64,000 nt of DNA from the NCBI GenBank assembly GCA_977018835.1, contig OZ361259.1, positions 2,418,001-2,482,000 on the forward strand, read 5' to 3'. This DNA comes from Minutocellus sp. GHC0000111 (taxonomy: Eukaryota). Below, piece after piece: positions 3,709 through 56,593 of this stretch. Under the pieces are notes generated by a model. That model ran no database searches. It was not told where the DNA came from and worked only from the letters and a program-made list of their open reading frames with translations. The position numbers and the translations under genes were made by a program. Within the stretch, counting starts at the first letter, position 1, and each line of letters opens with the position of its first letter.

Positions 3709-3872
3709 TTGAGACACATCCGTGTTGCCGCCAATGGAGTCGGCCACTCTTACAGTAGTGTTTGGAGACTTGGAGACTGCAACAGGCAATGAAAAATTCA
3801 TGTATGGCACGAGCTCATTAACGGTAGACTACTTTTTACTTGAAGAATATATATTGACTATCGAGCAGCATA

Positions 3873-11444: not shown

Positions 11445-12035
11445 TGTCGGCTTGACCACAAGCCCTGTGTGTTTATGTAACTATCCGGCCCCTTAAGGGC
11501 CTCAGGAATCTCGACATGTCGTGTGCCCGACGCTCGCTTTATCGCTTGCGTCTGTGGCCAACATGGCTTCCGGCGAACGAGGTTTGTCCCTGTGACACTC
11601 CTCAACCGAACTTTCCCCTGTATGTAGCCTCAACTCTTAAATTAGAGGAGTAATTATCATCAATAAATCGCGTCAGTAATGACGCCTGTGCTGGCCTACG
11701 TGGACTCTTTCTTTCGCTAAGATTTTCAATAATTGTTTTGTTCGTGAAGAATCGATGAAGAATGTGGATTCTTCACTGACGTGTAGGTAGGTAACTTCTC
11801 TCCCGTTCTCGTTGAATTTTGACGATGATAACGATAAAAAAGAAAGTGAATGACGCCCAATCCTGAACGAAATGGCCTACAACATCGGAACTACCAATTT
11901 CGCCGACGCGTCCTCAAGCATGCGCAGATCTCAAACTAAGCGTGGGGCCGGTAGCCGGTAGCCAACCAGCAACTGTCCGCACATTACATTTCATATCCCG
12001 TCCACTTGCGTTGCAGAGCACCATCTAAACCAAGC

Positions 12036-28459: not shown

Positions 28460-31400
28460 CCTTTCGAGTTCAGAGGATTTGAAAGTGACGTGATGATGAC
28501 GTATTAGAAACACGACCACACCAGACCAAAAATCCAAGCTCACTTTTTCTAACTCCGAGGAATAAATGACGGCCAAGATGGAAGTCGGGGCAAGAACCAA
28601 GTTATGGTCACCAACTTCTACATATAGTCGAGAGATATTGTTTACCAGAACCAATAAATGTACATTATGTGATGATTTTTTTCGACATTTGCATTCCTCA
28701 CCCCGGGAAAAAATACATTTTTGGAAGCACCAAATCAAAATGTAATGAATAGAAATGGACATGCTATGATAAGTTATAGCAAATCAATGACTCCATCGTC
28801 TTCATCATTTTCATCTATGTCGTCCTCAATGTCATCATCTTCGCCGGGAGCATCAATTGGCCAGAGTGGTTCACCATCCTCTTCAGCTTCTTCCTCGGCA
28901 ATTTTTGCGAGACCAGCCTTTCCCCGTCTGGTCTCCACAAGATTGTTACCGCCACGACTTCTCTTGATGTTGTTATATATCACTGGAAGTTTTCCAAATA
29001 CATTGAGAAAGGCCTCTTTTGATGCGACATTGGCCCATACTTTCATCACAGTCTTGTCAAGAGCATTCGCATCATTCTTCTGACCGCGATGTTCCTTTTC
29101 GACGGCCGACTGCAAAGACATCCAGATGCCGAGATCAAGAACATTTGTCTCGGGCGACCGAGGAACCTGCTGGATTATCTCAATCTTATATTTGTTTTTG
29201 AGGTCCTCGGTGTACTTCTCAACTGCTTCATTGGACCCATGACCGCCGGCATTGTCCATCATAAGACACATAACATCAGACTCCTGAATATTTTGTGGAT
29301 CCCACTTCACCCAATGATGTGCGTCTCGAGTCGCCTTCCCGACCTCATTCACAGTCTCCAACATCCATTTGGAGTCGCAGCTACAGTCCTTGGCAACCTT
29401 ATCGCCCCGTTGATACCTCACCCCGAGCTCAAGGTCGTCGATCTCAACCTTCACCTTCTCTCCATTGCTATCAGGAGTGTGTCGCTTGAGACTCGAGATC
29501 TTTTGATTGCAGCCAACAGCGGCATGCTTGCGACTTTTTGCCTGACCGTCGGATTTACAGTCCTCGCATTGAAGTTCCAATCGCTCTGTAACAAACTCAG
29601 AAAGGCCGTAGATTTCGGCAATGTGGTCGCAAAGATGGCCGGCGGTCATGTCAGCATTCTCGTCGTAAATGTCGCGCCAATCTTTGTCATTTTTAGCGCA
29701 TCGTTGACCTTAGCATCTGGAGAGAAATTCTGATTACGCGTAAGCTTTTCCACCTTCTGCTCCCTGGCGACTCTCTTGATCATGATGCGCCCATTGAAAT
29801 CAACGTCTTTGGTTTCATCCTTCATTGGTCGGCCAACAACTCCAAGACACATAACTTTGACAGGGCATCTTCTGGATCGAATTTTCGGGCTTGCCTCGGA
29901 AGCATGGATAGACGCGAGGTTCGGACTGCTTAGTTCTTCGTCAGAAAGTGGCAACATCTTGATCTTTCGTCGCCGAGTAGCAGTGTAAAACCACTTTTCA
30001 TCAAGATGCGCTACAGGAATGTTGGGATCGGTCGCAATGTCCTCCCACTTTTCGATCCAATCAAGTCGCTTCCTACAATGTTCGGGGGTGAGCCTCGGCT
30101 TCTCGATCGACGACTTCTCCTTGCCGCCTTGCTTTTTCCACCAGCGAAAAAGCTGAAGACGATGGAGACTAATTGTCAGCCTGTCTTCATCTGGAGTAGC
30201 TGATTTTGCGCTCATGCAGTCAGCTAGCTCCTTAAAGGTTGCCATCGCACCCTTCATCCGAGTAGCATGCCGACACAGCTCGCGGAGATGTCCTGGCTCC
30301 TTCTCCTCGATCATGTCCGTGCATGCCTTCCTTCCACGAACCTCCTTTCTGCCGATGGGATTGCTGATGCCATCAGTGAGGCTTTTGTAGAGCTGGTCTC
30401 TCCACTTGTAAAGCTGAGAACCACCGGTTGACTTGGCATAGCCGTGATCGTGCGCAACTTGCCGACACGCGGCAGTTGCAATTTGTTGCCGGTCTTCATG
30501 CGTGCGAGTTGGGTCGCCGCATCCCCACCAATCCGCGAGAGCCACGGCGCTGAACCGCATTCTTTCATTCGCCTGCTTTTCTTTTCTGATTGGTGTTGGT
30601 TCGGTGACGGTTGCATTGGGACGAGGAGGACGGAGCATGTCATCGTTGGCCATCCGAACAACAAAGTCGAGGCCGAGAGCGACCTTTACCTGTTCATCAA
30701 TGTCACTGGAGGTGGCACAGACAACGGAAGTGTCGGCTCCTCCTAAACCTTCATCATTGGGGGAGGCTGCAGCTGCTTCAGTGGCGGAAGCATCACCAGT
30801 TCCCTTCAGCATGCTGAGGAGACTTGCTGGCATCCAACCCAGTTTCTTGGCCTCGTCGACTAGTGATTTCACTCTTGCTTCGCAATGCGCTGACTGCACC
30901 TCCTTTCTGTGAGCTGACAACCTCTCACCTAGCTTAGTAGCTAAGACAGTCGAGCGCCCAGAGAACAGAACTTCATCGGGATTTCTTTTCTCGTGCACCT
31001 TCTGTCCCTCCGGTCCAGAGAATTTCGGGTGGTTGTCCTCCTTCTTTTTACGCAACCTGTGAGCACAAACATAAAGCGCCCTGCGTCTTGTCTTCCCTCT
31101 CGGCCGACACGTCGACAAGTGCAACTTCAAACTACAATGCTCCTTGAGATGTTGCTGCACATCCTTCCATTTTTCCTCGTTGTACTGTAGCTCATACTTT
31201 CCTCCACCGACGGACTTGGAACGCAACAAGTCGGCCTCGATGAAAGCAGGGAGGACGTCTTCCCATTTCTGCCGAGAACCAACACAAATGTCATCTTTGC
31301 CGCAGGAATCGGGGGTTGCTCTCCACCACAGATCCTTACCAGCCCTTCGAATGACATCTGCTGCAAGGAGAAAGGCCATGGGGATAGGAGGAGGGGCCGT

Positions 31401-31907
31401 CCTCTTCTTCGCCGACGACGGTGACGGTTTGGCGGGCGAATTTGTGACCGTGGCCGCTTCTTCGACGTGCTTGCGCTCGGCGATGGTGTTTTCGGCTCAG
31501 CTGCCGCCTTTGCCGCCTTCCTGGATGCCTTGGTGTTGCCTCTCTTGCTCCCTGAGAACGAAGTTCTGCTGCGTTTGTATTTTTTGGGCGTGGTCTGGTT
31601 GGTCGTCGTCATCGTCACAAAATTTGCGGGTTGCGGTGAGGGTGTGCGGGGGACCAAAAAACACATGTGTTCCTGCCAGAATCTACTGGACCTGCGAATT
31701 CAGTGGATAACACTACTGGTCGGTGGCAACCTACTGAATGAGCAGGTCCAGTAGACATCCACGAGTTGAGGAGAGTGTTTTTGCGTTCCTCCCGAAGAGA
31801 ACATCGACTAACAAGACACGTGTGGTGGGAAATGAGAAATGGGTGCAAGAATGACCTTTTTTAGGGGTTGTTGGTATACCCTCTACAAATCCTCTGAAAC
31901 CGAAAGG
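28460..31907 (-). mobile_element. Tc1/mariner-superfamily DNA transposon (DD39D), ~3.45 kb
   Basis: 22-bp TIRs 28460-28481 (cctttcgagttcagaggatttg) and 31886-31907 (reverse complement cctttcggtttcagaggatttg), 2 mismatches; flanked by CA and TG where a TA TSD is expected; splits a host gene. Confidence 0.88.
28774..31612 (-). pseudogene. Mariner-like transposase with frameshifts
   Basis: HLDEKWFY, MDNAGGHG and QVPRSPETNVLDLG motifs (39 residues between 2nd and 3rd Asp); split across ORFs 31127-31666, 29646-31379 and 28774-29649. Confidence 0.85.
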
Positions 31908-36437: not shown

Positions 36438-38941
36438 TCAGGCGACAGCAGCGCATTCGGGGTGGAGCTTCGAAAGGAAATAGAAATTATAACCAGCTAT
36501 GACCAGATCGCTGGCATCCTTTCCTTCCGCGTGATAAATTCTGAGGGCTTCTGAGTACGTTGCCATCAATTTATCAACCTCGCCTTTCTGTAGGTACACG
36601 TTTCCAATGTGGTTGAGTGTGCGAGCAACGTTCATGCTGTTACTTCCAGATAATTTTCGTTCGATGGCCAGAGCCTCCTCGTAATATTCCAGGGCTCGAT
36701 TCAAGTCCCCCCTTTGTTGGTAAACCTGACCAATGTGCTGCATGGTCAATACGACATCTTCGTGGATGGGTCCCAGAGCAGATCGTTCGATTCGTAGTGT
36801 TTCCTCATAGTGCTTCATGGCCTCATCTTCGTCGCCAATATCTAACAAGATTGTCGCAATGTTGTAAAGAACAATGCCAACATCTCGGTGGTCGTTACCA
36901 AGCATCTTTCGTCGGACACGCAAGCATTCCCAAAAGCTTGACATTGCCATTTCATTGAAACCTTGCTTGAAGAGGACGAGGCCAATAGAATTCAAGGTGG
37001 AGGCGACATCCAAATTCTCGTCATTGTAGACATCTCGTCGTATCCTTAGCACCTCTTGGTAGACGTCAAGAGATCGCGAGTAGTTGCACATTTGGAAGGT
37101 GATGAGACCGATATTGTTGAGTGTGTTGGCGACGCTGATGTGAGAGTTGCCCAGAGACCGACGTTGGATGCCTAGGGCTTCGTAGTACATGTCCAAGGCG
37201 GGATGATAGTCACCATTGTTTTTGTAGATCTGACCAATATTTGACAGTGTCACAACGATATTGGGATGATCAGATTCCAGGACGGCACGCTCAACTTCAA
37301 GGCCCTCCTTGTACACCTCAAGGGCGGCATCAAAATCACCAACTTCGTAGTAGAGGTTGCCAATCTTGTTGAGCGTGCTGGCAATCTCGATGTGGTTCGT
37401 ACCGAGGGATGCCTTGCCTGCGCGCAGAGCCTCCTTGTAGCGCTCAGTTGCCTTCTCATACTCGTCCCTTTCGTGGTAGATCTGTGCGACGCACTTGAGG
37501 ATGATAGACACATCTCGATGGTTCTCGCCCAGACGAGCCCGGGCGATGCGGAGGAATTCCTTGTACAGCCTCATCGCGTGATCGAGCTGCCCAATTTGGT
37601 GGTGTGTCTGACCGGCATTGTAGACTGTAGCAGCCACGTCAAGATGGTCTGGACCAAGAATTGATCGTCGTATACGCAGTGCCTCACAGTACATGGACAT
37701 GGCAGAGCCATACTGTCCCTTCATGTAGTGGACTCTGCCTATGTTGTTGAGGGGTAGATCTGTGCGACGCACTTGAGGATGATAGACACATCTCGATGGT
37801 TCTCGCCCAGACGAGCCCGGGCGATGCGGAGGAATTCCTTGTACAGCCTCATCGCGTGATCGAGCTGCCCAATTTGGTGGTGTGTCTGACCGGCATTGTA
37901 GACTGTAGCAGCCACGTCAAGATGGTCTGGACCAAGAATTGATCGTCGTATACGCAGTGCCTCACAGTACATGGACATGGCAGAGCCATACTGTCCCTTC
38001 ATGTAGTGGACTCTGCCTATGTTGTTGAGGGTGGTGGCCACAACTTGGTCTTCACTGCCTGACATGGCCCGGCGAATATTAAGCGATTCCGTGTGCATCT
38101 CCAAGGACTTGTCGACATCAGGTTTGGCCATGTGAAAGTGTAACACGCCAATGCAATTCAGGGTCGATGCAATGTCGAAATGATACGTCCCAAAGACAGA
38201 TCGAGTCAGAACGAGGGCCTCGGAGTACGTTGCAAGAGCATCCTCACAGCGCCCAGCTCGGTAATGAATGTAGCCGATATTGTGCAAAATGCCCACTATA
38301 CCAGCGCCGGCTCCATCAGGAAGGTCTAGCTGCCCACCATCATTTTCGTAACAGATTTGAGCCGACTTCAAGGCTCGCTGGAAGGCATTTAGAGCGCTCC
38401 CATCATCGTTGAGACGAAGCTGGATCTGCCCCCAATTGTAGAATGTAGTGCTGATCAGCCGATGATAATTGAGTGCCGAGGAGGATTGGTGCTGAGACAA
38501 TGATGTGAGTGGTAGCGGCGTGCCGTGAGTTTGCATTCCCTCGTCGTAGGCATCGCGTTGGTAAATGTACAGAGATGGAGAAATGTTGCTTACGGAGTCG
38601 ATGCATAGGCGTTTATTCGTACCGAGAGGCCGTGCCATCGTCTCGACGGAAGACATTATTGAAAGCGCGTTTTCCAGAGAGGCAGCAGCCTCAAGGATCG
38701 ATCCAGAGTTGATGGCATGGTATGCGACGTTGTTGCAACGGATCAGCTCGGATGTCACCTGCATCTCCTGTGATTCTGCCGTGGCTGCAGAAGGCGAAAT
38801 GCTCGACGACGGATGGAAAGGTGAGATCATGGCTTCGCTTTGTTTTGCTGTTGCTGTTAGCCGCTTGGGATTATGGCGCCAATAGCCGATAAATGCGTGA
38901 TTGTTTGTCGCGGCAGAGTCGCAGAGGAGTTGAGTGGTCAC
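36438..38941 (-). CDS. TPR-repeat (kinesin light chain-like) protein A; frame broken by internal 278-bp duplication
   Basis: Many ~42-aa repeats (H.DVA.TL.NIG....G.Y..A...Y.EAL.IRR); ORFs 37739-38941 and 36438-37772. Confidence 0.88.
37475..38030. repeat. Apparently perfect 278-bp direct tandem duplication (37475-37752 / 37753-38030)
   Basis: Both copies begin ggtagatctgtgcgacgcac and end atgttgttgagg; no differences seen. Confidence 0.93.
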
Positions 38942-40106
38942 TTACTTGAGAGACCGGGCATGTCTTGGGGGCGAAAACTACGAATAAGTCAAAAGTGCAC
39001 TGAGGGCTGTTTTGAGGAGGTGGAGGGCAAGACATCGACGCAGTATATAATGGCCTGCGGTCGTAGAACATTGTAAAATCGAAAGTCACATTCTTCTTGA
39101 ACAACGAGGCGGAGAAGGATGTGTCAGATGGCGTCTGAATAATTCTACTCTTATCTTGAAGCGACACAAGACACTTTTACGACTTTTTCTCGACGTGCTT
39201 GAAATGCTTGAGCAAAAGCGCGTGGCGGGCAAATTCGAAGCTGTTTACGAGCGAGCTTGAAGCACCGCGCACCGGCTCGATCGACAGCGAGCACATGTAG
39301 CTACGTAGCAGTGCGCACATGTAGCTAGAGCCTACGTTTCATAAACCCATCGCGATGGCGCAATGACAGCGAGCAAAAACTAGGAAAATGACTACATGTA
39401 ACTAACTGGGCCTACATGTGCTAGCACAACAGAAACCAAATTGAGTAATCCTAGCCTGTGCCTCGTTCAGGCTGCTTTCCACCCGCATGCCATTGCTGCG
39501 TGGTTAAAAATTAAATGAGACTTTCACACTGTTGTGCACCCCCTTGAATTGTGGCCTTTATTATCACCGCGTAAAGGCAGGCCTGCATGCCATTGGCTCA
39601 CTTTGTCCGAAAAATGACGCAATGTGCTGTCGGCCTGTGAGTGCAGGCCTACGTGCTACTGTGCCAGTGCCATCGGCTTTATGGAAATCGTGTGCTTTGA
39701 ATCTTGGCCTCGTTCACTGAACACGTTTCTGGCGAAGGCCTGCATTTGCATGTGTTTGACTTCTGGATAAACAAATTGGGTTTCTTATTGGCCTCTTCGG
39801 TCGGCCTTCTTCAGCATTCGCAGTGCCAGTTAGTTGTGCATTCGTCTTGCAGTCCGAGCTGAACCCCGTTTCGCCTGTTTGGTGAAAAGAATTGGCGAGT
39901 GCTTCCCTCCTCTCTGTGCACATTTATGTAGATCTAGCTATAGAGTCTAGCTAGATCTACACATGTTGCATTGCACCGTTGTTGTTAGATCTAATGGCAA
40001 CAGTAAAAAGAAATCTCTAGCTTGTAAGCTTCTGTAGCAGTGAAATAGAGTATCTCTAATGTTTTAAGTAATGCACATACGTGCAGCACTGCCCCTGATG
40101 ACCCCT

Positions 40107-40406
40107 TTAGCTCTCTCTCTCTCTCTCTAAGCTACAGGAGCAGCCTCCGGATGGTCCTTGGTTGGACAGTGAGTAGAAGTTGAAGCCAGCCACGACCAGG
40201 TCGTTCATGTAGTCAGTGCCACCACTGGTATTGGCGTTGTACAAACGTGCGCTCTCGACATAGGACTCCATGGCATCGCTGACGTGACCCCTCTGCAGCC
40301 GCATGTTGCCAACGTGGTTGAGCGTCCTGGCGACGGTGGGGTGGTGCCGCCGCTGCCGCTGCCCTCGGCCTGCTGCTTCTGCTTGTTGCGCCTCTCGATG
40401 GCCAGA
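40107..40406 (-). pseudogene. 3' fragment of a TPR paralog, truncated at the Copia LTR
   Basis: HPTVARTLNHVGNMRLQRG...DLVVAGFNFYSLS matches the C-terminus of TPR A (VARTLNHIGNVYLQKG...DLVIAGYNFYFLS). Confidence 0.8.
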
Positions 40407-40602
40407 TGCTAAGAGGTCCTAAAGCTAAGCTAGATAGACATAGCTAGTAGAGGTTAATAGGACCTACGTAGATGAAAAATGGGCCATCGGAGATGTCGTT
40501 GGCCCATGGATCAACGGTCAGGAGAGGGCACTGAGTCAGTGGTCTGATCACCGTACGTACCGTACGTATGTATACGTACGTACGTATCCCACGGCATCAA
40601 CA
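40407..40602 (-). repeat. 3' LTR of Copia element
   Basis: 196 bp; differs from 46440-46635 at 4 positions by eye. Confidence 0.93.
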
Positions 40603-40636
40603 CACCCTCGCAGATCAATGACTAGTGCCATTGAAT

Positions 40637-43600
40637 CTACATGTAGAGTCCTAATTGGAATCTACATGTAAGTAGACTGGTCGCATGTCGACATGGTAGC
40701 GGGCGGGATGGTGCTTTGTAAAATAATCGGCCAAATTTTGCACGCTCCTTTCCGCCAGTGCACCTGGAATTGTCGTTGCTCTGTGCGATCTTGGACCGGA
40801 CCCAGTAGAATCTCATGTCCATAGCCTTAGACCGTCTTTGCTTGACGGTTTTATTGGCGATTCCAGATGCTGTAGAGTTGTCAACGACGATAGCAGTAGG
40901 GGGCTGCGGGTGACCCATTTCTTCTAGTGCTGCCCGGATTGGCACTGCATCTTTCATGTTGAAAAACAATCCCCTCCCAATTCGGCTTCAGCGGCTGAGG
41001 ACATCACATGCTTGATGATGTTGGCATTGACGAGGATGGCTCCATTCATTGGTGGCATGGGATCACTTGAGTCAGGCTGGCGGTGCGGGTCCTTAGGTCG
41101 GGAGCTTAGGTAGAAGCACCCTCCGAGCTTGCTTCTTGATTTCGGGGCTGACAAGCAGGAGGCGTCGCTATGTGCATGTAGGATCATGTCTGACTTGACG
41201 CATCGAATGACTGCGTCGGGATGGGTTGCAAGGTAATCTAGAAGCTTCTTGGCATCTTGTCGAGTGCGCTCGGTAGCTTTGGATTGTTCCGCTGAGATGC
41301 TGTTGAGCGCCGGTAAAATTGTTGAATCAATTGCTCGACCACAGCACAAGGAGCTGCCCACCACCTGTTGAATTTCGTTGATGCCTTTGGCGTCGAGTGG
41401 TGGTGAGTCGTCTTCCGGTTCTGGCAGCTGGGGTCCCGGGCCATGCGTCGGACGATTCCATCGATGTGGCGCATGCTCGGGCCGTGAGGGGCGGTCGTGT
41501 TGGAACTTGTGGCGCATCTCCTTGACGTAGTTAGGCATAGACAGATCCACCCATTTGGCCTCGTAGTTCCACTCGAGTTGAACACCACAATAAAGTCGGC
41601 CTTCCCAATCGGTAGTGATCTTACACTTGGAGTTGAGGGCCTGAATGAGATGGTCTGCATGCTCTTTCCCGACATGCTTTGCTCCAAAATCGTCAACGGT
41701 TAGGCAAAAGGCAATTGGGCGGGTTTTGTGCCTCCAAAGGCCGGCAGTGCGCTTGCAAGGGAAATGGCCATGGGGTTTGAGATGCTTGACAAGTTGATCG
41801 CAGGCTAGGCGCCCTGCCTGGGGTAATCCATGCATTCCGCCATCGATTCTGACCAACACTCGACCATTCTTTACTTTGTCGTGGAGGTCGTAGGCTTCCA
41901 TGACTTCGTCGGGGATGAGAGCTACTGGCGCCCACATCCATTCTGGCTCTGGCATGGTGCTGTTGAGACAGAAGTCACTGATATCAATTCCCATGAAACG
42001 AGCGTTGTCTGTAGAGATGACGCTGTTGAAAAGTAACTTTGCAGTCAACATTTCAGCGGTCGGGGTCGAGACTGTACCAGGGTAATGAATTTTGTCGCCT
42101 CCTGCAGTCCATCGAACTCGATTGGGATTTGGTTTGTGGGAGCGATAGTCGGCGACAATGCGGAGGTATGTGGCTTTTTCCCCCGAGGCAGTTCGGACCA
42201 GTGGACGAAAGCCATTGCATTGGAGGGAATGCTAGCACTGTTTCCAACTCGGCAGTCCGTTAGCCGTCCAATTTCATCGATGTTTGCTTGAATGAATTGG
42301 TCCCTCATGTTCGTTTTGAGGAGGTCGCGGTGTTCAAGCATTGCACCAGTGTCGGGATGGACGACGGCGTTAGCAAAGTGTTGGAGGTTTGGTAAAGGCG
42401 AGAAAGCTGCCATGTTGGCCACGTGGTGGGTGCTACGACGAGATGATGGCCGTGGGGGAGGGTTCCGATGTGGAATGCACCCTCGCTGACGGCATGATCG
42501 TCGTCGAGGTGGTTTGGCGGTCGATGGTTTGGACTTGCTTGTCGATTTTGCTGGAGCTGGTAATGTTGGAGTGGTGTCGATCGTTGGAGACTTGCGTTTA
42601 CGTTGCCGACGGGAGGTGGGGGCATTGGAACTTTGATTGGATGTTACAACGGTTGCATCGTTGTCATGATTATCATCATCGTCGCCGTTGGGCTCGTCTA
42701 CTGCAGCCAAAGGATTGTAGTAGTTGGAAGAAACTGACGAGCGAGGTGGCGCGTTGGATCGACGTGATCGACGGCTTTTAGTGGTGGCTGCATCATGTGT
42801 GGAGGATTTTGCCACCCTCGGAGGTTGCTGGGGCTGAGGTAACGGAGCGTTGGGGTTGGAGACAAGGTGACGGCCTACTTCAGTCTCGTTCATCTATTCT
42901 ACGTCGTCGTCCTCGTGTTTGATTTTGTAGTGCTTATACTTCTTGTCAAATGCAACGACTCTACCCTTGTAATTGCGATCTCCAAACACTTTGGCGACGA
43001 TGGTACCGAGGCGGAATCGTTGGGAGTCGTCATCTTTCTCCAGCACCCTCGGAGCTGCGGTTGTCTGCATCGTCTCATCAGAGGCGGAGGTGGCAGATTC
43101 TGCTGGGGTCACGCTGTTGAAAATCTCGGAGAGCTTTTCTAAAGCTTGACGATGCTCGTCTCGAAGGGGAGCAAGGGGTGCCGCTGGATGTGGATTCTGT
43201 AGAGCGTGCAGGAGTTCATGAGCTGCGACTATTGCTGCATCGGCCGACGACGTTTTGGGCACCGGAATCATTTTGGGGAGCCAGACGAGTGTGTTGCCAG
43301 TGCGTTCCGCCCGAGTTTCCTCAATCTAAACCTTGTAACACCGGTAGCGCTCCATGGCTGGACCGACATAGCACCCATCAACGCCATGCGGGGACCAAGA
43401 GCCGCGTGCCGAGGGCATCTCGTGAAAGATGACCATGCATCCGAGGGGGCCGAGAGGCGTGCGATTGAAATCAAAGCCGCCATTGAGTTGCTCGCACGCT
43501 GACAGTCGAGGGTTGACTCGGGATGCTCTCAGGAAATTGAGGGTCATTACCGCCTGCTCCAGCAATTTATCCCACAAGATGAGGGGAAAGTCGGGATTGG

Positions 43601-46144
43601 CACCACAGAGAATCGCAATGAAATGATTCTTAAAGGTTCGAATGGCTCGTTCGGCCGCATTTCGGCGGTGGGAGTGCGTTGGGGTCAATTGAAAATCTAC
43701 ATCCTTTTCTTCCATGAACTCCTTCAGCTCTCGACTCACTTCATTATCCAATCGTTGCAATTTTGGGCGAAATCCTCGCTTGGAGAGGTATTCGAAAATA
43801 GTTTGGTACGCTCGGCGCATTTCCGTTCCCGATCGGCTTTTCATTGGTTCGGCCAAGATGCTGTTGGAGTCATAGTCATAGACGACCATTATGTACTGGT
43901 GGCCAGAAATAGACGATACCAAGAAACGGCCGGGCTGATCTGAGAAGATCTGGCCCGTTATGTCATGACAATCAGCAAAGACATAGTTGGTGCGCTGTTG
44001 GTGTTGTGCCGGGTGGAGATCCTGCTCGGTTTCGTCCACCCCAGGGAGAGATTTTGGCGTAGCCATCGACCGTTTGGGCTTGGTCGACCTGATGTTCTTG
44101 CGCTGCTGGTCTAAGTGACCTTTAATCATCGGCATCGACTATGGCATGTGCTTACGTACAAGCTTTGATGTGAGGCCTGGCCAAGATCTGTAAAATCCCG
44201 CATCGATTGCTTTGCACCAGGTAGATAGCTGAGGACTGCCAGCGCACCAATAATGTAAAAAGGCTACACGTTCCGGAACCGTCTCCTGGGCAATTGCGGC
44301 GTTGGCAGCATGTTGGATGACGTTGGGGCCGGGGAGCGGCGACATGGTGGGCGAGCAATTAAGATCTACCATCCACAATTTCGTTGAGGGGTCTCGTTTA
44401 CCTTGCAAAATGACGGTGTTGTCCTTGGCGATGACTACCGAATCCTTATCGAAAGTGGCAATGCATCCATCGTCACACAGCTGCCCAATCGATAGGAGCG
44501 ATGATGCCAAATTATTGAAAATATAGGCCTTGCTAGCCGATGGGGAAACCCCAGGGAGGCGAAGCGTGGCCTCGTGGGTGTTCGTCATTGTGCTATTATC
44601 CGGAAGGGTGACGCTGATAGGAATTGCTGTCTGTTGGACGTTGAAAATAGGGCCATCGTACGACAGGCATTGGGGCTTCTGGACAAAATGTCCCGTCGTT
44701 CCAGCATCTGCTGCGAGGACGATTGGCTCTTGAGTTGGAGGTTTGCTTTTTGACGTAAGAAAAGCTAACGAAGGCGGGGAGGAGGTGGATTCAGACACAC
44801 TATCCTCTATTTTATACTGATTAACATCCACCGTCCCTCCCGCTCAGTTACGACGCGAGCTACCACCGCAAGGATTGTGCTTGGTGGCGTTATCAACGTG
44901 GTTGGGCCCTTTGCAAGTGCATTCAAAGCTGGGGTGGTTGGACGAATAGCCGCACGTGTGGCAATAATGGCCTCTGGGGAGGATCGACTGCAGTTCCCGC
45001 TTCTCCTGGCGGTTGAGGTTAGGACCTTGGCCTGGGAAGTGGCCGGCGCCGTTCTGCTGGCCACCGCCGCGGTAGCCTCCACTGCCACCAGCATGGTTGC
45101 GTCCCTCACGCAGAACGCGGTTCTCGGCCTTGAGTGAAGCTATTTCTTGGCGAAGTTTGGCAATGGTGTCATCCTTCTCGTTGCTCTTTTTGGCGAGGTT
45201 CGCCATCATGGCTTGGTTGGTCTTGAGGGCTTCGGTGGTGTCAGCCAAAAGGAGATCGGCTCGAGAAAGAAATGGATCGTCCGAGGCCGATGAGGCCAAA
45301 TTCGCGCCATGACATCCTGCCGCTTCGGTGGTGGCATTGGCCATCTTCTTATCACACCAATCGCGGAAGTCCGACTGCATGTTGGCCCACGTGCGTTCGG
45401 CCTCCGGTCTGTCGTCCCAGTCCTCGCATGCGCCTTCTTTGCCAATGAGAACCTGCGCACGGAGCGGCAGAACTTGGAGACCTTTTGCTTGTTGGTGAAG
45501 GGTTCGCCGGCCGTTTCAAACGCCTTGAAGACTTTGTTGAACATGGCGATGTGGGTGTCGATGGGTCCCCCGTCGTGCTGCTTGCTTCTCGAGCTGCTTC
45601 TCTAGTTCCTCCTTCTGAGTCTCGTTGAATTTCAAGTAAGTAGCGATCGGTAATGCTGTCGATGATTTGGCGGATGGTGACTGGCTGGAAACCGAGCATG
45701 TCATCTTCGAGATGATTGATGTAGACGCCGTCGATCGAGTCGAGGAGGAGATTCTTGAGCGCCGTGTTGACTTGCTCGCACAAGTTGTGGTGGCCCTATT
45801 CGATGTGTGACATCCCCCCGGATTGCACGATCGCGTTGGTCTAGATTGGCCACGGCGGGAATGGTGGGGCTGGGGCCAGGATTTGCCGGAGGCACATGTG
45901 GTCGGCCGTCACTTTTGGTGGTGTATTCGGCATCGCTGACGACGAGGCCCAAATGGCCGAGGTTGTGGTCATTGCACCCTCTCTGCTGGAGTGCTGGCCG
46001 CCGCTTGTTGAAGTTCCTTGAGAGCGCTTTGGCAACACGCTCGCGTTGGGGAGGTTGTCCTGGGTCATTCATACGTGTGATTAACTTGGTGGGGAGAATC
46101 GGCGCTGCGCCGAGAGGTTGGCCAAAAACTGCGTCGGGATTCAC
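40637..46144 (-). pseudogene. Copia gag-pol with stops, frameshifts and many Tyr->Cys/His changes
   Basis: Fragments in ORFs 45701-46144, 44844-45380, 44139-44831, 43326-44135, 42894-43271, 42045-42893, 40954-42051 and 40637-40969. Confidence 0.9.
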
Positions 46145-46439
46145 GCTGGTGTTTCAGTCAGCGAAGACAGGCAGCACGGCGGTGCTGCTGCGAGACGTGT
46201 GATCGACAGAAGGTTCGATCCAGAGAAGTGTGATCGATTGGATGGGTCGATCTGGTCAGGACTTTCGGGGAAGGGATTGGATCGTCGTTCCAATGTTGTC
46301 GAAAGAAACGGTCGTTTTGGCCGATTGAAGATGTGTCGGTTTTTCTTGCGTGACGAGTGAGAGAACCCAAGACGACAAACCGGTGAGGTGCGAACCGAAA
46401 TGGGGCGAGCACGGGTGGAAAAGATGCATCACGTAGGTC

Positions 46440-46635
46440 TGCTAAGAGGTCCTAAAGCTAAGCTAGATAGATATAGCTAGTAGAGGTTAACAGGACCTAC
46501 GTAGATGAAAAATGGGCCATCGGAGATGTCGTTGGCCCATGGATCAACGGTCAGGAGAGGGCACTGAGTCAGTGGTCTGATCACCGTACGTACCGTACGT
46601 ATGTATACGTACGTACGTATCCCACGGTGTCAACA
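46440..46635 (-). repeat. 5' LTR of Copia element
   Basis: Direct repeat of 40407-40602 at offset 6033. Confidence 0.93.
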
Positions 46636-47366
46636 CAACAAACACCTCCCCATTGATGATGATGGCCACACTGTCCAGGCTAAAGACATGTGTAATTCAA
46701 TTAGGTTTGACCCAAAGTTGAGGCACCAGAATTTGGACAGCAAGAAGAATGAAGCATTAATAAATAGACATACAATATGAAACAGCAACACACATAATGA
46801 GTTGCTGGCATGCAGATCACACACACAGAGATCGACGATCGACAAGAACAACGCCGGGCCGACAACAAGTCCATCTCGGGCATCATTGCCGCTCGTCAGA
46901 GCACGCCGCCGCCCTTTCCCATTGTCCAAACAGCGAGGCGACCAAAGTCAGGGGGGAGCTGGTGCACAGCCACTGTAGGACGATGAAGAAAGAGACGGAC
47001 GAGCACGAGGGCCCCGACAAGAACTTCCGGCGGCTGTCGACAACCGACGGCGAGGGCACCAAACTCTGCCAGTTTTCCTCGCCGTAAAAGTCTTACCGAT
47101 AATTCTTAACGCGGACGGAACGCTTCTTCCGACGCTTGTTCAAGTGATGATATAATGTGAGCACATGTGGCGGCGGCGAAGGTGTCGTGCGCCACTCGGA
47201 AGTTGACACCATTTTGGTGCCGCGGAATGAGGCTGGCTGTCAGCTGGAGAAAGATACTTTTTCCAGTCGGACAAGTCGAGTGAATCTCTAGTATTAAAAA
47301 AATCGAAGGTACGTGTTTCTACCTCAACGAGGTATTTTTTCTGTCCAGCTGTACCTAGGTACATTA

Positions 47367-49662
47367 CGAAGTCCGTTTCGCGAGAAATCGAGGGCAGGGC
47401 CGGGGGACCAAAAAATGTCGATTTTTGGGCCCGCAACCCGGACACGGACACATGCATGTAAAGCCGGAACCATCAAAACTGACAAGAGAGCACTACACAT
47501 GCATGTACGGCATGTGTGTGTAGTGGCACAAATATAGCTCGAATCTAAATAATCTAGTATTATTTTAAACATAACATAACTTAAAAGCACCGCAGGACTA
47601 ATTATCCATGGTTGGATCAGCAGGAGGAGGAGCGATAATTTTCCCATCTATCCGAACCATGCCATTTTCAGTCGGCCTGAAATCCTTTCGCACCCCAACA
47701 TGAATGCCTTCACCGTTTCCAAGAAAATCATTGTTGCCTTTTGCAACGATTACCTTCTTTGCAATTCTATGAGCCTGGATGCATGCCGATGCGATCTTCC
47801 AGTTTTCCAGCCCCATCCAAACTTCCTCCGCTGCATCCCAAGTCTGATCTTCTGTCAAAACCTTCAGCCCCTCCCGATCGCGGCTCGACATTGTATGCCG
47901 CTTTGACATGCAAGGGAAAACAGACAGATCAAGAACATTCATATGGGGCATTTCCGGGGCCTGAGGTTCCCAACGCCATCCCTTGTCCCGACAGTATCCT
48001 TCCACATATTCCACAAATTCAGTCTCGGCATGGGGCCCAGCATTGTCGCCCTGAAAAATAGGGACATAGCCTTCAAACTTTCCACCAGGTCCGACCAAAG
48101 CCTCAACATCCGGAAACATCTTGTTCTCAAATAAAGCTTTCAGTGGGAACTTGGGATTATCAAGGGTGCCATGGCTGCATCCAGTCACCGCGCAATCCAC
48201 AAGGTATAGATCGTCTTTCTTCCGAACCACCGGGCCGTAATATTTGATTCTACCATCTGCCTGCCGCACCGCCTCCCTTACCATCTGCCTCGCAATTTTA
48301 TGCGCCTGAGCCCGAAAAAGTCCAAGCTTGAACGCAATGCCGCCATTCTCAATGCTGTCAATAAAAGCCAAGGCAGTGACAGCCACCACCATGCACTTGT
48401 TGATGTGATTTCGGTGATATGCCGAGAAGGACCGAGGATCAATACCCAATTCTGCAACTTGCTTGGCATACGATCGAAGAACCAAGCCCCAAAACCACTT
48501 CTCATCGAACATAACAAGGAGAAACTTGCCACCGCCGAGCCCCCAATTGTTTCGGAATTTCCGCGCAAATACCAAATGTTTCTCCATCTGATGGGTAGTA
48601 AGGAGAGGGATGATCCTTTCGGCATAGTACCGGAACCCTTCCCGCGACATTATCCACCGCCGTATTGCCGAGTAGGAACACCAAAAGTTGACATCAACCT
48701 CCAGCTCCCGCCAAGATTCCCGAGGATTTCGTATCAGAGCATCAACAATAACATCTCGAATGTATGGCTGCATAGCCAGATGAGATCTCCTCTTCATCTC
48801 CCACATCGCCTTCTCAGATGCAGGTAGAGCACCATACGCCTTCATCCATCCCGAAAATCGTGCACCATGCTCTGCGCTGGACAGCACCGAATAGTCCACC
48901 TTTGCCTGCTCCCTGCACTTGGCAATTGCAAAGAGACATGGTGCAGTATACCGCCGGGTCGCCGTTGCAAGATCGTCGATGACAGAACGGAAGGCGGCCG
49001 AATCAGATGAATCATCGGCACTCGTTGGGAAGCAGTATACCGGTCCAAGTGTGCCGATCGCGTCATCGAAATGCTCAGCTTCGACTTCCGCCCGAGACAC
49101 AAATGGATTGAACACATACTCACCGCTGTCTTGGCCATCATCATTGACCAGGAGAAAACTCTCAAGATTGACGGGCCCGAGGATTTTGAGAAGCACATGC
49201 TCCTCAATGTCGTCAGTCGACTCGTCTGCCGGGCGATAAGGGCCGAGAACATGCCCCTCGACATGGATGATGTCGTGGCAATAACTGAATCGGTGTACGA
49301 CAAGGCCGCGGAGATGTTCCACTCCTCAGTTTTACCTTCATCTACAAGTTCAACGGCGTGAAGCGGGAGCTAAAGAAGCTCAAGCTCATCCCGGATTGGC
49401 TGTGGTGCGAGATCCGGGACGAATGCATCGTACTGCCGATCCGAGGCGAGTATCATGCCATCGTTCAAGATGAAGACGAGATGGAGGCCGCTGAAATCTA
49501 AAGTCTTATCCGAATTATTGTTTCACATGAAGATAAATCAAAATTAGAGTAAAAATAGCCATTTTCTTAAATATTTCAGCATGACTATTCTTCGAGGCGC
49601 TTTTCAATCCCCTCGAAAGCAGTCAAAAACCGGGCGCTCGATTTCTCGCGAATCTGACCTCG
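47367..49662 (-). mobile_element. Tc1/mariner-superfamily DNA transposon (DD38D), ~2.3 kb, TA TSD intact
   Basis: ~29-bp imperfect TIRs (cgaagtccgtttcgcgagaaatcgagggc / reverse complement cgaggtcagattcgcgagaaatcgagcgc); TA at 47365-47366 and 49663-49664. Confidence 0.85.
47598..49322 (-). CDS. Mariner-like transposase, open frame (true start uncertain)
   Basis: FDEKWFW, GDNAGPH and QAPEMPHMNVLDL motifs (38 residues between 2nd and 3rd Asp). Confidence 0.85.
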   Translation of the reverse strand: MEHLRGLVVHRFSYCHDIIHVEGHVLGPYRPADESTDDIEEHVLLKILGPVNLESFLLVNDDGQDSGEYVFNPFVSRAEVEAEHFDDAIGTLGPVYCFPTSADDSSDSAAFRSVIDDLATATRRYTAPCLFAIAKCREQAKVDYSVLSSAEHGARFSGWMKAYGALPASEKAMWEMKRRSHLAMQPYIRDVIVDALIRNPRESWRELEVDVNFWCSYSAIRRWIMSREGFRYYAERIIPLLTTHQMEKHLVFARKFRNNWGLGGGKFLLVMFDEKWFWGLVLRSYAKQVAELGIDPRSFSAYHRNHINKCMVVAVTALAFIDSIENGGIAFKLGLFRAQAHKIARQMVREAVRQADGRIKYYGPVVRKKDDLYLVDCAVTGCSHGTLDNPKFPLKALFENKMFPDVEALVGPGGKFEGYVPIFQGDNAGPHAETEFVEYVEGYCRDKGWRWEPQAPEMPHMNVLDLSVFPCMSKRHTMSSRDREGLKVLTEDQTWDAAEEVWMGLENWKIASACIQAHRIAKKVIVAKGNNDFLGNGEGIHVGVRKDFRPTENGMVRIDGKIIAPPPADPTMDN

Positions 49663-49841
49663 TAGATCTAGCTGACTTCAGATGGTCTCTGAAAAGCAGA
49701 GCCGAGCGAAGAATGAAAACTATTTGATCATGAGAGCCACATATTAGTGGTTACATAAGATTATGGTATCAAGCCGAATACGAATGCGAATTCGAACATT
49801 CGAACATCAAGGGCGATGACTTGACTTGTCACTCGCCAATC

Positions 49842-51326: not shown

Positions 51327-53416
51327 TTAAAGGAACCAAGGCGCTTCTTCTTCAACAAACTTTTTGTCGAGCTTTTTCGTCTTGACATTCTTCAGAACCC
51401 TCTTTCTATTTTCATCTTCGAGCAAAACTCTGCAGTCAAGACGAACGTGACGAACTGGGCGACCATCGACCGTTAGATTACAGTCCGCATCCGCCTCGGC
51501 GTCGTCACAATATTCCAGGGAAATATCTTCTTGGTCTGCAAAGACTCTGACCTTGCGTTCTGGTCCACATGCTGCTTGGACCGCACGCTTGGCCAGCATG
51601 AGCTGCCAAAATTTGCCACCAACGGCGTCAACTGCGAGGTGAGCACTGACCCACTGGAATGCTCCGGCAAGGATCGACTGAACGCCTCTCTCACCCCAGC
51701 ATCCTGCTCGCCACACGACAGCTTTATAGCCATTCCTCTTACCCAAATGGTTCATTACGTCAATCGGATCGCCGCCCACAACACCCATATCAGTAAGCTT
51801 TTGCTTGAGGTCCTGCGTTCGCTGCATTTCGCTCTGCACAACTTCTGTTGCCGCCAGAGCTGCCTTTTGGTGCATGACTGCAGCTTCGGCTGCTGCTTCA
51901 GCATCTCCAGACTCGATGGCCTCCTTGGCCTTGAGCGCAGCTTCAGCGGCAAGAGCGGCCGCCTTCGCTGCAGATTCTGCCGCAGCGATAGCCTGGGCAT
52001 TGTCTCCGTGTCGAAGCAGAATCCTGGATGGCTTGCGGCCTTCACTCCTCCAGAAGTTCTCAATGTCAATTCCTTTGGGTAGATTTGGATCATCATTGCT
52101 CATAGGCAAGTCCTGGAGGTCGGTCGCATCCATGACCAGGATCCTTTCCACAGCCGCCGGGAGTTCCCGGCCTTGGTCCGCAAGCCACCGAAGTCCAAAC
52201 AAACGCGATGCGACCGAATCATCACCACCGGGGCCATTCCCTTTCTTGGGGAACGTAGCGACACATGCATCCACCTGCTCATACCAGGGCATCATTGGGT
52301 TTTTATTCAAGTTCTCTTGCCAATCCTCCTCTTCAAATTCCAATTGAAACAAATCGTCAACTTCAGTGGAGAATTCATCCTCTTCGTCTTTATCAAAGTC
52401 CTTCTCCCAGATACTTTCCGGTGGCGGAGCAAGAGCGTAGGAACCAAAATCGCGAAAGCCCAGGACCTGTCCACCAAACGACTTCCCAAAGGTATTGCCA
52501 TTGCGAATGAAAGATTCTGTGTCATCACTATCAATAACAGAACAGTGCAAGAATCCCAAAGGTCGGCCGGTCCGGCTAAAATGGTGACGCGCCATCCGAT
52601 GCAGCTTGGTGTTGGCGAGGTTGGCATATTCCTTGATTAGGCTTTCGCAGTCCTCCTGCTCTACTCCCATCGTTACGCTAAGGCCGGCCGCATGAAGCGC
52701 CGATGCGCCCTTGTTGGCATGCTCCGGAATAGGATCAGCACAGCCGATGACGACCCGCTGGATTCCTGACTCCTCGATGAGCTGAGTTATCGATGGTACG
52801 GCAGTTCTAAACATGAAAGAGGAATACAACAAGGAAGTACAAGAAAAGGTATTTCAGTGGCGGTACAATTACGATGTGAGATCGCACACCGGGAGTTACG
52901 AAAATATAAGTGCATGGGAATGAAGGATCGACAAACAGGAAAACAAACCAAGCAACTCACCCCTGTCTCTCAGTACTAGGCTCCAGTGTTACATACAAGG
53001 TCGCCTCGGCAATATCCTTGCGAAGCTGCTCATCGTGAGGCCAGGTGACACACCACTCTCGCAGAGGGGTCGCTACGATCCCTGCATCGGCAATGGCAGC
53101 GCGGACAGCATCCTTCTTGTACGACGCCCGGCCCTTGCCAATAATGCGTCCGTCTGGGGTGGCAATCACTGCACCGACGATGGGCTTGGGGAATGGGGAT
53201 CTCGCGCCTCTCTCCCCGCCTCGACTATTGGCCTGCTGGATGGCCATCTGCATGTACTTGACGTCACGCTCCTTTTCGGTCTTCTCTTCTTCGGTGAGCT
53301 CTGGCGCGGCGTCATCCTCCACCTTTGCCTCGGCGAAGCCATTGACTACTACTGCTGGCTGATCGTCATCGTCCTCCTCTGAAACTAAGACATCACCCGC
53401 ATCCTTGAGCGAACCA
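51327..53416 (-). CDS. RibD/PyrR-like protein with degenerate deaminase domain; intron 52807-52960; 5' end missing
   Basis: YMQMAI..A...P.P.VGAVI..DG.IIG.G, ATLYVTLEPS, I.ESGIQRVVIGC.DP; Zn ligands not conserved. GTGAGT donor and TTTAG acceptor give an in-frame join (RQG-TAVPSI). Confidence 0.75.
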
Positions 53417-55141
53417 GGTGACGAGGCCGATGCTGCTGAGGGTGGCGGTGACCGAGGGGTGGTCAAGGCCGAGGGTGCGGCGCTGGATCTCCAGAGCCTC
53501 GTGGTACATGCGTACGGCCTGCTGATGGTCACCACGGTGCTGGTAGATCTGGCCAATGTTGGTAAGGGTCACAACGATATTGGGATGGTCCTGCTCCAGT
53601 ACAGCCCGCTCCACGTCCAGACCCTGGGAGTACACGTCGAGGGCGGCATCGAAGTCCCCCCGCTCGTAGTGGAGGTTGCCAATCTTGTTGAGGGTGCTGG
53701 CGATCTCGGCGTGGTTGGGTCCCAGAGCCCCGCGGGCGATCCGCAGGCTCTCCTCGTACACCTCGTGGGCCTTGTCGTGCTGGCCCTTCTCGTGATGGAT
53801 CTGGGCGACGCACTTGAGCATGACGGAGATGTCGCGATGGTCGGCCCCCAGGCGCGCCCGGGCGATGCGGAGGAAGTCGTCGTACAGCTCCATGGCCTCC
53901 TCGAGGCGGCCGAGCTGGTGGAGGGTCTGGCCGGCATTGTAGACGGTGGCGGCGACGTCGAGGTCGGCCTCACCAAGGAGGGTGCGACGGACGGCCAGGG
54001 CGCGACGGTAGACGTCGAGGGCGGCATCGTAGTCGCTGGTCATGTAATGGACCCGTCCAATGTTGTTGAGGGTGGTGGCGACGTCCTTGTGATGATCTCC
54101 CAGGATCGAACGGCGGATAATGAGACTTTGGCCATAGTGCGCGAGGGCCGCGTCGGCATCGGGCTTGGCCATGTGAAAGTGCAGGACGCCGATGCAGTTG
54201 TGGGTGGCGGCCGCGTCGAGGCTGAACTCGTACGGGAGCATGTGCAGGATCTCCGTGTAGGTCGACAGGGCCTCGTCGAACCGCTCGGCGCGGTGCTGGA
54301 TGTGGCCGAGGTTGTGGTAGATGCCGACGATGGTGGCTCCGGCCCCGCGGATGTCGTAGTTGGAGGAATCCTGGGTGGGCTCGGCGTGCGTGAGGGCGAT
54401 GCTGCTGCTGCCAGAAGAGGAAGCTGGGCCGAACGATGATGCTGTCGCCGTCTCGAGGGCACGGTAGAAGCAGTCGGCGGCCGAGGCATCGTCGCCGTTT
54501 CGAACATGGGCCAGGCCGAGGTTGCAAAGGACGGTCGATCGGACGACGGAAAAAGATGAGACGGCCTCGGCAGTCTTGAGGCGGAGGGGGTGGGAGTAGG
54601 TGGTCATTCCCTCGTCGCATGAATCGCTGTCCTTGTCGTCGTCGTTGTCGTTTTCTGTAGGCCTACTTCCAGAAGTTGAAGACATGACGACATCGACGTC
54701 CATGAAGGTAGAGGAGGAGGCATCGTCGTGCTGGGACTTGGAAACGCTGGCAGCACTGCAAGCGGCAATGGAGGAGCTGCCAGCAGAGATGCCGGCGAGG
54801 TTCTCGAGGGCCAATTCCAGGGCTCGAACGGCCTCGGCAGGAGCGGGGACGGACACATTGTTGCTCGACAAAGACGAAGAAGTAGGAACTCCTGAAGCAA
54901 CCTCCTTCGACTCGACGTGCATGGCCTCGGCGGCCACGTTGTTGAGGCGGACGGCCTGGGAGAGGCGAAGGAACGCCGACTCCGTCATGCCGTCGGTCGA
55001 CTGGTCGTTGCCGGCAAAAGTGGTGGCTTTGGCAGCAGTCGCACCGAATGCCATTGTGGACATGGCACGGGCGTAGTCGTAGTTCATGCCGGCGGGGTAG
55101 ACGACGGCGTTGCAGTCGAGGATGGACGACGAGGAGTTCAT
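53417..55141 (-). pseudogene. TPR protein B, 5' part, truncated at the junction with the RibD-like gene
   Basis: Close paralog of TPR A (NCIGVLHFHMAKPD, DVAATVYNAGQT, HPNIVVTL.NIGQIY); similarity ends at SIGLVT (~53417). Confidence 0.8.
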
Positions 55142-56593
55142 GCTTATTGCGTTGGGTTGGGATTGGATTGGATTGGATTAGCAGAGAGCAGGATGGGGTG
55201 GTGGTTGTTTGTTGCCTTCTTTCTCGAAGAAATGTGTGGGATGTGAGATGTGTCTCCGAAGTGTGAAAAATGACAGGCAGCGAGGCAAACAGCATGGCAG
55301 CAGCATCAGCAGCCGCCGCCGGCTAAACTCGCGGCGTAGCTGTGCCGGATGCGACGGGATGACACAAAGAGATTTTTGAGTTGTCCCACTTTCGGAGCTA
55401 ATAGTAATCCCGAGGCCTGTGCCATAATCGAAAGGGACGATTTCTTAGTGGAGAGTGAAAAATTCTCCCAAATGTCAGAAAGCAAAGTCTGCAGTCCCTT
55501 GTTCTCTCCAGTTCCCTTCATGTGTTGAACTTGGACACCCGGAAATTCTTGGAGTGACAGAAAGAAATTCACGTTTCTGACGACATAAGGCGTCATGGCA
55601 TGTTGAACTATTTTTACACACAAGCCACTCCTTTTGTGCGGTGGCCGCAGAACGTGTTGGAACACACAGGCCGCATAAGTGTTTATTGCGCGTCGGTCGG
55701 GACAAGGCCGAATTACCTGTTACTGTGCTCCCCAAAAACTTCAGAAATCAATGAAGTGACTGCAGAGTTCGTCCGAGAATGACGTCACGCACTTTCCCTC
55801 GGCGATGTTGGAGAATTTTGTACGCACAGCACATGTGAGCACACTTCAACGCAGTATTTTTGTACAAAATGTAAGCACAGCACACAAGCACACAGCCAAG
55901 GGGCACATGAAACAAACGACAAACGACACCAGCACATAACATCACCCCGAACTCATCATCTTTCCTGAGAGATCTGCACCCAGGCCAGCCAGAAATGTTT
56001 TCGAAACCTTCCCTTGCGGTGCAAACCAATGACCCCCAAAAAGTCGAGCCTTGTCCCGCCCCACTCCCTGCCTAACCGGCACAGTACCAAATTGGTAGTC
56101 AGAACAAGGAGATACACCCCAGGCTGAATAGAATGGGGAGTGGGAAGAAACTCCGAGCCCCACTTTGTGTCAATTGGCCTCAATTTATTTATGGTCCCAG
56201 ACGTCATTCGGAAGGATCAACATCCGGCACATCGATTCAAGTTGCAGGTCGAATTTCTGATCAGTTTCAGGCAGGCTCATGACAGACCGCGGAGTCATCT
56301 GATCTGTAGCTGTACCTAGGTACATGGAACATCCGTATCCCACACATTATTGTGAGCTGCAGAGCATAGCATCGAACTAAAAAAAGGAACAAGGACATGT
56401 CAATGTAACTTATTGTTGCATGTACAATACCGATTGAACACTCCCTCCGTCCATATTTATCGTGTTCCCCACGCAGGCGGAGGCGTGGGGATATTTCTTT
56501 TGCTCGAAATATCTTTCTCTTTTGCCGTCGTCGCGTCCTGACGATTTGACTTACTTATTGAGGCCAGTTCGCAAGCCCAGCCAGCCAGCCAGC

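Follow-up and report, generated by a model that had tools for sequence, protein, structure and literature searches.

The 64,000-nucleotide stretch of Minutocellus sp. GHC0000111 analyzed here (contig OZ361259.1, positions 2,418,001 to 2,482,000 of assembly GCA_977018835.1; referred to throughout as the window) contains a Copia retrotransposon on its minus strand in which many conserved tyrosines are replaced by cysteine or histidine, as changes of TpA to TpG or CpA would produce. From long terminal repeat (LTR) to LTR the element spans 40407 to 46637; the original prediction, which placed it at 40637 to 46144, located the element correctly and drew it too short. The 5′ LTR (46440 to 46637) and the 3′ LTR (40407 to 40604) are each 198 bp long, are 98% identical, and have TG...CA ends. 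Between them, all on the minus strand, lie a frameshifted gag region (44844 to 46153), with no RTAY tetranucleotide (R, purine; Y, pyrimidine) in 44847 to 45515; a protease-region open reading frame (ORF; 44139 to 44843), named by inference and compared with its sister copies; an integrase-region ORF (43326 to 44138), named from motifs and position without a Pfam match and bordered by stops private to this copy; the reverse transcriptase (RT) ORF (40954 to 42231); and the RNase H-region end of pol (40637 to 40987), which is frameshifted from RT and is named from its position, without a Pfam match. Interrupted by stops and frameshifts, this copy is a dead element. The RVT_2 domain was matched weakly by the RT protein in the window (E value, 0.0075) and above the cut-off by its relative P0002. 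The LTR pair, the integrase region ahead of RT, RVT_2, and named homologues on Cyclotella and Attheya scaffolds liken the element to the diatom Ty1/copia (CoDi) elements, from which it differs by its broken ORF and by the missing target-site duplication, the left and right flanks being different. The left flank (40107 to 40418) is the C-terminal fragment of a tetratricopeptide repeat (TPR) gene, the TPR gene at 53396 to 55177 stops abruptly next to a RibD-like fragment, and a contig of sequencing run X2 departs from the window at about 40265. The missing duplication, the split TPR pieces, and the departing contig suggest a rearrangement or an assembly join at the Copia locus.

The Cys or His residues in place of Tyr, and Ala in place of Val, that had first been noticed in the Copia motifs are all present in the minus-strand translation, and the ancestral Tyr or Val is backed by homologues, sister copies, or relatives. 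For RT, the best 120 of 1,629 matches were aligned, 117 of them distant (46 to 60% identity), and a column was taken as a conserved Tyr column where at least 70% of the 117 distant homologues have Tyr. At the 16 columns so defined, the window copy has Cys or His at eight (in DFCL, GMHG, HGHF, KHVG, KCKI, PTHG, CCGR, and SCL), Tyr at seven, and at one a Trp that is common to the family, whereas Cys or His accounts for 6 of about 1,860 residues at the same columns in the distant homologues. Intact homologues thus do not share the His and Cys residues, and this conserved-column comparison identifies Tyr as the ancestral state. Other positions were read from closer sequences: RLACD has Tyr in 11/11 sisters and FGAK has Val in 12/12; the LSACEQL position has 10 Tyr, 3 Cys, and 2 His in 15 sisters; AGCHGAN is AGYHGAN in the relative L001 (76% identity); and Tyr stands in 16 of 19 matches to LE-x-R-x-L among the best 120 RT matches. 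At IRCV and SCL, the sisters covering the positions show Cys or His only. The integrase core had been described as keeping its Tyr, which is true of the window copy (7/7 conserved Tyr retained) and does not hold as a general feature, as sisters are changed there (10 Tyr, 5 His, and 5 Cys at position 43895, for example). A protected integrase domain is thereby ruled out; the core is a cold stretch of the window copy only.

To obtain the mutation spectrum, we collected at least 47 sister ORFs, 85 to 100% identical to those of the window, from long ENA contigs, with one 30-member cluster represented by 15. Three ORFs that are 99.5 to 100% identical and probably stem from the same locus were left out of the count, as were the short-contig relatives P0230 and P0250; 44 sister ORFs and the window copy were then compared over the 898 codons for which five or more copies were available, and nonsynonymous transitions away from the inferred ancestral residue were classed by context. 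Changes of A to G or T to C were found at 86 of 134 TA sites (256/1,795 copy-sites, about 14%) versus 27 of 752 other A/T sites (AA, 10/217; CA, 12/250; GA, 5/285). The copy-versus-consensus spectrum, read via protein differences, is therefore enriched at TpA. Changes of C to T affected 17/205 CG, 6/189 CA, 5/265 CC, and 1/171 CT sites; CA is slightly above CC and CT, and changes of the kind made by repeat-induced point mutation (RIP) are far from dominant, in line with the earlier view that neither RIP nor 5-methylcytosine decay explains the pattern. Among transition copy-events (transversions were not counted in this set), 295/349 were A to G or T to C; 256 of the 295 fell at TA and 24 of the remainder at CA, and these 24 may have been TA sites originally, with the synonymous T already changed in the window.

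The 35 ancestral Tyr codons were read as 266 Tyr, 106 Cys, 80 His, 2 Asn, 1 Phe, and no Arg. Because both Cys and His occur, at 20 of the 35 sites, TA must end as TG in some copies and as CA in others, and Tyr probably never becomes Arg because the first hit removes the TA target. As an ancestral Tyr was assigned where His and Cys co-occur, a procedure that favors Tyr sites, codons other than Tyr were tested separately, and there too TA*Y (with A* the changed base) was changed more often than TA*R (22/30 versus 10/34 sites; p = 0.001). Derived states were paired for the four-gamete test, and it was failed by 77 of 137 pairs, which implies recurrent hits or recombination between copies, and the load per copy is uneven, from 0/26 to 22/44 (permutation p = 0.0005).

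The bases flanking the target follow a distinct code, ranked as ATA*C > other RTA*Y > YTA*Y. Rates per copy-site are 0.49 for ATA*C, 0.30 for ATA*T, 0.25 for GTA*C, and 0.19 for GTA*T, about 0.08 to 0.12 for CTA*Y and TTA*Y, and 0.08 to 0.09 for ATA*R, and no change was seen at CTA*R, GTA*R, and TTA*R (0/334). Over all sites, 71/82 TA*Y were changed versus 15/52 TA*R (p = 1e-11), and all 15 of the latter are ATA*R. The most often changed class is TA*C (148/641), there is no preference for G at +2, and an attack on T would fit the context equally. The original prediction of changes on both strands is borne out by nearly equal rates for a changed A on the sense strand (134/677, 0.198) and on the antisense strand (93/444, 0.209). 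Successive hits no more than 150 nucleotides apart lie on the same strand in 69/142 cases, as in shuffles (null, 0.51), and processive single-strand deamination thus finds no support.

Part of the element was present in 20 of the 24 runs listed, four of which (X1, X2, X7, and X10) were compared, all as contigs. Against X1, the differences are transitions at 110 of 118 places and transversions at 8. Among the 40 of 174 difference rows listed, 37 lie within the element and comprise 31 TA/TG/CA exchanges, 1 ambiguous case, and 5 others, and two of the 31 are private window changes that create stops by a step toward TA (43327 and 44141). Derived TG/CA alleles are also present in X7 and X10, which are Illumina RNA-seq contigs of two studies: X10 shares those of the window at 41152 and 41156, and X7 shows the opposite outcome at 41969/41970 and 42796/42797. 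Such alleles had been proposed as a check on a modified base miscalled by long-read sequencing, and a miscall is all but excluded because it could not persist through cDNA synthesis and PCR. The window alleles make up 49 to 82% of the depth at 41152, 41156, and 41832 in X1 and X2, and the right-hand junction is covered by one contig each in X1 and X2 with zero differences. No listed contig covers the whole element, and the read data leave the individual alleles of the locus unphased.

Over their 198 bp, the two LTRs are identical except for four columns at three sites, two of them TA/CA and one CA/TG. Of these, only 46491 is polarized by reads, with C in the 5′ LTR and T in the left LTR, in 65% of the X1 depth, and in X7 and X10; the direction at 40439/46472 is not polarized, and the CA/TG site could derive from CG. 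The associated statistic (p = 0.003) is suggestive only, as is the fit of these differences to action after insertion on a young element. The left LTR retains nine RTAY, but the LTR differences record only changes since insertion, and protection of the LTRs as a whole is not claimed. A TACG/CGTA-rich array in both LTRs (40554 to 40588 and 46587 to 46621) also retains its RTAY sites, and protection of the LTR promoter is possible.

The same signature is found in a transposase remnant at 28774 to 31496 (minus strand), which is likely Tc1/IS630-like, a class read from Atlas leads of 0.85 to 0.86 (below 0.9) and from likeness to a nearby ORF with a Tc3-type helix-turn-helix match. In this remnant, 11 of the 18 Tyr of the closest intact relative, P0477 (for which no Pfam or PDB match was found), are His or Cys and three are retained, and sister fragments carry the opposite residue, His versus Cys, at the same sites. 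Three distant homologues with few Tyr (P0505, P0517, and P0562; 3/144, 40 to 44% identity) have His or Cys at most of the conserved Tyr columns, which points to the signature in other families or genomes. As a likely DNA transposon is affected, an RNA step is not needed. The nearby ORF, a second Tc1-like transposase at 47598 to 49325 (minus strand; HTH_Tnp_Tc3_2, E value of 9e-6), is open over 575 amino acids and apparently little affected, with an RTAY index of 0.30, like host genes, and T kept at 4/17 RT|AY third positions; it had four homologue matches. Inverted arms at 47365 to 47395 and 49634 to 49664 flank this element (47365 to 49664), which may be young or may escape targeting.

Host genes served as the control through protein conservation and codon composition. 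The TPR gene at 36438 to 37916 (minus strand), whose named homologues are diatom proteins of Conticribra, Phaeodactylum, Nitzschia, and Pseudo-nitzschia, retains 16 of 17 conserved Tyr over 36441 to 37751 (one is Phe) and 8/9 in its N-terminal part, with no Cys or His. The earlier statement that the TPR genes are unaffected holds for this gene and fails for the broken paralogue at 53396 to 55177, discussed below. An exact 279-bp tandem duplication within the TPR gene (37475 to 38031) shifts its frame and is either recent or an assembly artifact, and RPB8 was located near 3490 to 3710. Counts of RTAY versus RTGY plus RCAY were 207/561 in 13 host ORFs, 15/204 in Copia, 2/62 in the transposase at 28774 to 31496, and 51/120 in L001. 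At synonymous RT|AY third positions, T is kept at 70/170 in 12 host ORFs versus 3/44 in transposon ORFs (p = 5e-6), so that protein selection does not explain the difference between host and transposon. These results uphold the claim that the process is directed at mobile DNA, and the confinement holds within the 64-kb window with two exceptions, the one spared transposase and the one partly affected broken TPR gene. The RTAY index, which shifts in sharp blocks along the window, separates Copia from host DNA, whereas plain TpA observed/expected (o/e) ratios per kilobase fail to do so.

Beyond the window, Tyr/His/Cys exchanges make up 45% and 27% of the differences in its Copia family versus 0 to 4% in eight other Copia clusters, and the three of these eight that lie on long contigs show instead the Arg-to-Cys/His/Gln exchanges typical of CpG decay. 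The clusters lacking the signature probably come from other assemblies, and to judge from these sequences the TpA process looks lineage restricted.

A published parallel is the TpA hypermutation of the chlorarachniophyte Bigelowiella natans. According to the preprint (bioRxiv 10.64898/2026.01.13.699255), two viral inserts, of integrated nucleocytoplasmic large DNA virus and virophage DNA, received 231 of the 302 new mutations; nearly all of the 231 were A:T to G:C, and these lay all at TpA and in some lines only, with the de novo rate raised about 1,000-fold. Mettrop et al. also find DDE and RT domains enriched among TpA-poor coding sequences, and ADAT2 is proposed, not shown. In the features compared, namely, TpA to TpG and TpA to CpA changes, both strands, and foreign or mobile DNA only, the sequence record of the window indicates a process that works like this one. 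The uneven load is an analogue only, lying between lines in Bigelowiella and between copies in the Copia family, and the spectrum is less exclusive here (295/349 transition copy-events) than the 230/231 given for Bigelowiella. Single-copy viral inserts and a measured de novo rate in a chlorarachniophyte stand against multicopy Copia and Tc1-like elements with only historical changes in a diatom-like genome; no viral insert was identified in the window, and the main text of the preprint has no mention of diatom, LTR, context, flanking, or trinucleotide. We found no report of TpA hypermutation in diatoms in a literature coverage that mostly excludes subscription journals, which agrees with the earlier remark that no diatom pathway is established; the same signature is in print for B. 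natans. One of the searches gave, besides the Bigelowiella preprint, only papers on fungi and retroviruses, and PMC12344493 and PMC11453091 contributed nothing further. As the larger Bigelowiella insert is single copy, its mutation argues against a RIP-like homology trigger.

RIP of ascomycetes depends on RID, involves homology pairing, and acts premeiotically. It shares with the process in the window the dinucleotide-specific transitions, both strands of repeats, and crippled transposons, and runs in the opposite direction, as RIP changes CpA to TpA and makes stops whereas the changes here lead from TpA to CpA or TpG and make none. ADAR hyper-editing and APOBEC action on retroelements are one-stranded, clustered, and tied to an RNA or cDNA stage; they share a deaminase-type excess of transitions with the signature described here, which differs in being strand symmetric, unclustered by strand, and present also in a likely DNA transposon.

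Taken together, we consider it very probable that the TpA process exists and that mobile or silenced DNA is its target, and a transposon-directed mutating defense is the likely origin of the footprint as read from sequence. As to its chemistry, we lean, by analogy, toward adenine deamination by a host enzyme of the TadA/ADAT type. Such an enzyme, guided to silenced mobile DNA by silent chromatin rather than by sequence homology, would reach A where the chromosomal DNA of the elements opens transiently and deaminate it at 5′-(R)TA*Y to hypoxanthine, to be fixed as G upon replication. Action on chromosomal DNA after insertion would follow from the affected DNA transposon and from LTRs that differ only at TA-compatible sites, single hits would accumulate in the course of many divisions, and their likely effect would be the loss of conserved Tyr, Val, Ile, and Thr in pol and transposase with no new stop codons. 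The analogy is with Escherichia coli TadA, evolved TadA-8e/8.20, and amphioxus ADAT2/3, enzymes of the A-to-G type for which a 5′ T/U preference is described: E. coli TadA requires UACG, which resembles TA*C, the most often changed class, and evolved TadA prefers TA (PMC12296453, PMC12265680), and natural amphioxus ADAT2/3 deaminates A in DNA (PMC10354150). A more tentative possibility is an adenine base editor of natural origin, guided by chromatin and common to diatoms and chlorarachniophytes: an algal "reverse RIP" immune system of the stramenopile-alveolate-rhizarian (SAR) lineages that would work on chromosomal DNA, would erase RTA*Y from transposons and viral inserts, and would operate in certain diatom lineages but be missing or inactive in the remainder.

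Several observations weigh against this reading. The TA/TA duplex is palindromic, and an attack on A is indistinguishable from one on the T of the partner strand. Site classes were defined by protein differences mapped onto window codons rather than by sister DNA, and synonymous changes are invisible; near-identity in 18 of the 364 overlapping sister pairs means that copy counts are not fully independent and that site counts are safer. Polarity at the DNA level against L001, the one of seven relative loci used for this purpose (the other six served for composition only), is weak, with 25 changes of TA to TG/CA and 13 in reverse, and the two private window stops, TGG to TAG at 43327 and CAG to TAG at 44141, run in the RIP direction. 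No clean targeting rule emerges either: the Tc1-like ORF at 47598 to 49325 looks spared though it lies 1 kb from Copia, the broken TPR paralogue has Cys or His at 3 of 13 conserved Tyr, and host genes themselves show mild TpA avoidance. With regard to the enzyme, TadA/ADAT proteins have tRNA as their natural substrate, and BjADAT2, the one natural ADAT for which editing of A in DNA has been demonstrated, favors GAA and hairpin loops and acts on C as well, with C to T at TCG (PMC10354150); TadA-8e has no clear preference downstream of UA (PMC12296453); TadA enzymes favor single strands, yet the hits form no same-strand runs; and no candidate deaminase was found among the window ORFs scanned.

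Other chemistries could leave the same footprint. An oxidase of the TET/JBP type might mark the T of R-T*-A on repeats as 5-hydroxymethyluracil (5hmU) and then 5-formyluracil, and pairing of the oxidized base with G would make the mutations a by-product of silencing. 5-Formyluracil does mispair with G, and the data are symmetric for attack on A or T. PMC11071213 describes 5hmU as enriched on the repeats of a dinoflagellate and cites old work that gave TA and TC contexts, but the same paper saw 5hmU in B. minutum without any sequence preference, TC is not targeted in our data (GA/TC class, 5/285 sites), and a literature search on 5hmU with diatoms gave a dinoflagellate review only; we therefore think thymine oxidation unlikely. 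Scattered single hits on both strands would also be expected from a mutagenic adenine modification or adduct in heterochromatin, arising as a by-product of a methyltransferase or when TpA steps are repaired or bypassed with errors; neither a dedicated deaminase nor a defensive purpose would then be involved. The CpG decay of the copies (C to T at 17/205 CG sites) fits methylated chromatin, and PMC9998398 reports CG methylation of diatom Copia elements and a RID-related DNMT4 in diatoms, the function of which is not established. Three other Copia clusters, however, have CpG-type decay without the Tyr signature, so that methylation alone does not produce it, and the change is almost purely transition, which makes an adduct rather improbable.

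A genome-wide bias from TA to TG/CA, visible in dead transposons only since selection purges it from genes, would account for the low TpA across the whole window (o/e mostly 0.3 to 0.8), for T being less frequent at host third positions before A (0.24 to 0.41) than before other bases (0.57), and for the partly changed TPR paralogue, but not for the sixfold better retention of synonymous RT|AY in host than in transposon ORFs nor for the sharp blocks of the RTAY index, and we judge it very unlikely. There is hardly any room for ADAR-like editing of element RNA fixed via reverse transcription, even though Copia is a retroelement and ADAR edits UAN triplets in double-stranded RNA (PMC12265680): sense-strand T to C is as frequent as A to G, same-strand clusters are absent, and the likely DNA transposon is affected more heavily, all of which supports the earlier argument against one-strand RNA editing. 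A long-read miscall of a modified base, or an assembly error, might be entertained because no listed contig spans the element, the runs were compared as contigs rather than raw reads, and the sequencing platform of the window is not recorded; the Illumina alleles of X7 and X10, some the window's own and some with the opposite outcome, and the share of X1 and X2 depth held by window alleles make an artifact extremely unlikely.

The known eukaryotic DNA-mutating defenses, RIP and APOBEC, change C to T. For a targeted A:T-to-G:C process, one prior report was found, in one alga and with no enzyme, and the TpA process in a diatom-like genome, acting on ordinary transposons, brings in another SAR lineage and another class of targets. 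With only about one in seven TpA copy-sites converted, ancestral and derived states can be compared directly to read off the flank code, a fingerprint for candidate enzymes in vitro, and the Copia clusters without the signature provide a presence/absence contrast that could help locate the gene. A natural enzyme acting on chromosomal adenine would also be of interest for base editing, and in diatoms both GC content and the dating of transposons would be biased by the process.

The window holds some further features. A RibD/PyrR-like gene at 51327 to 53568 gave the only deaminase-fold match, a weak Pfam one, among the ORFs scanned, and was rejected as the enzyme, its fold being degenerate and without HxE and PCxxC. 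Two private A-to-G changes on the minus strand lie 2 nucleotides apart at 43348 to 43350, outside the TpA context. The block at 10000 to 11500 has 1 RTAY versus 78 RTGY/RCAY in a His-rich ORF of 444 amino acids (10110 to 11441) that had no Pfam or Atlas match, and is probably a heavily converted element. Further RTAY-depleted blocks lie at 39000 to 40000, at 54000 to 55500, which covers the broken TPR paralogue, and at 61000 to 62500.

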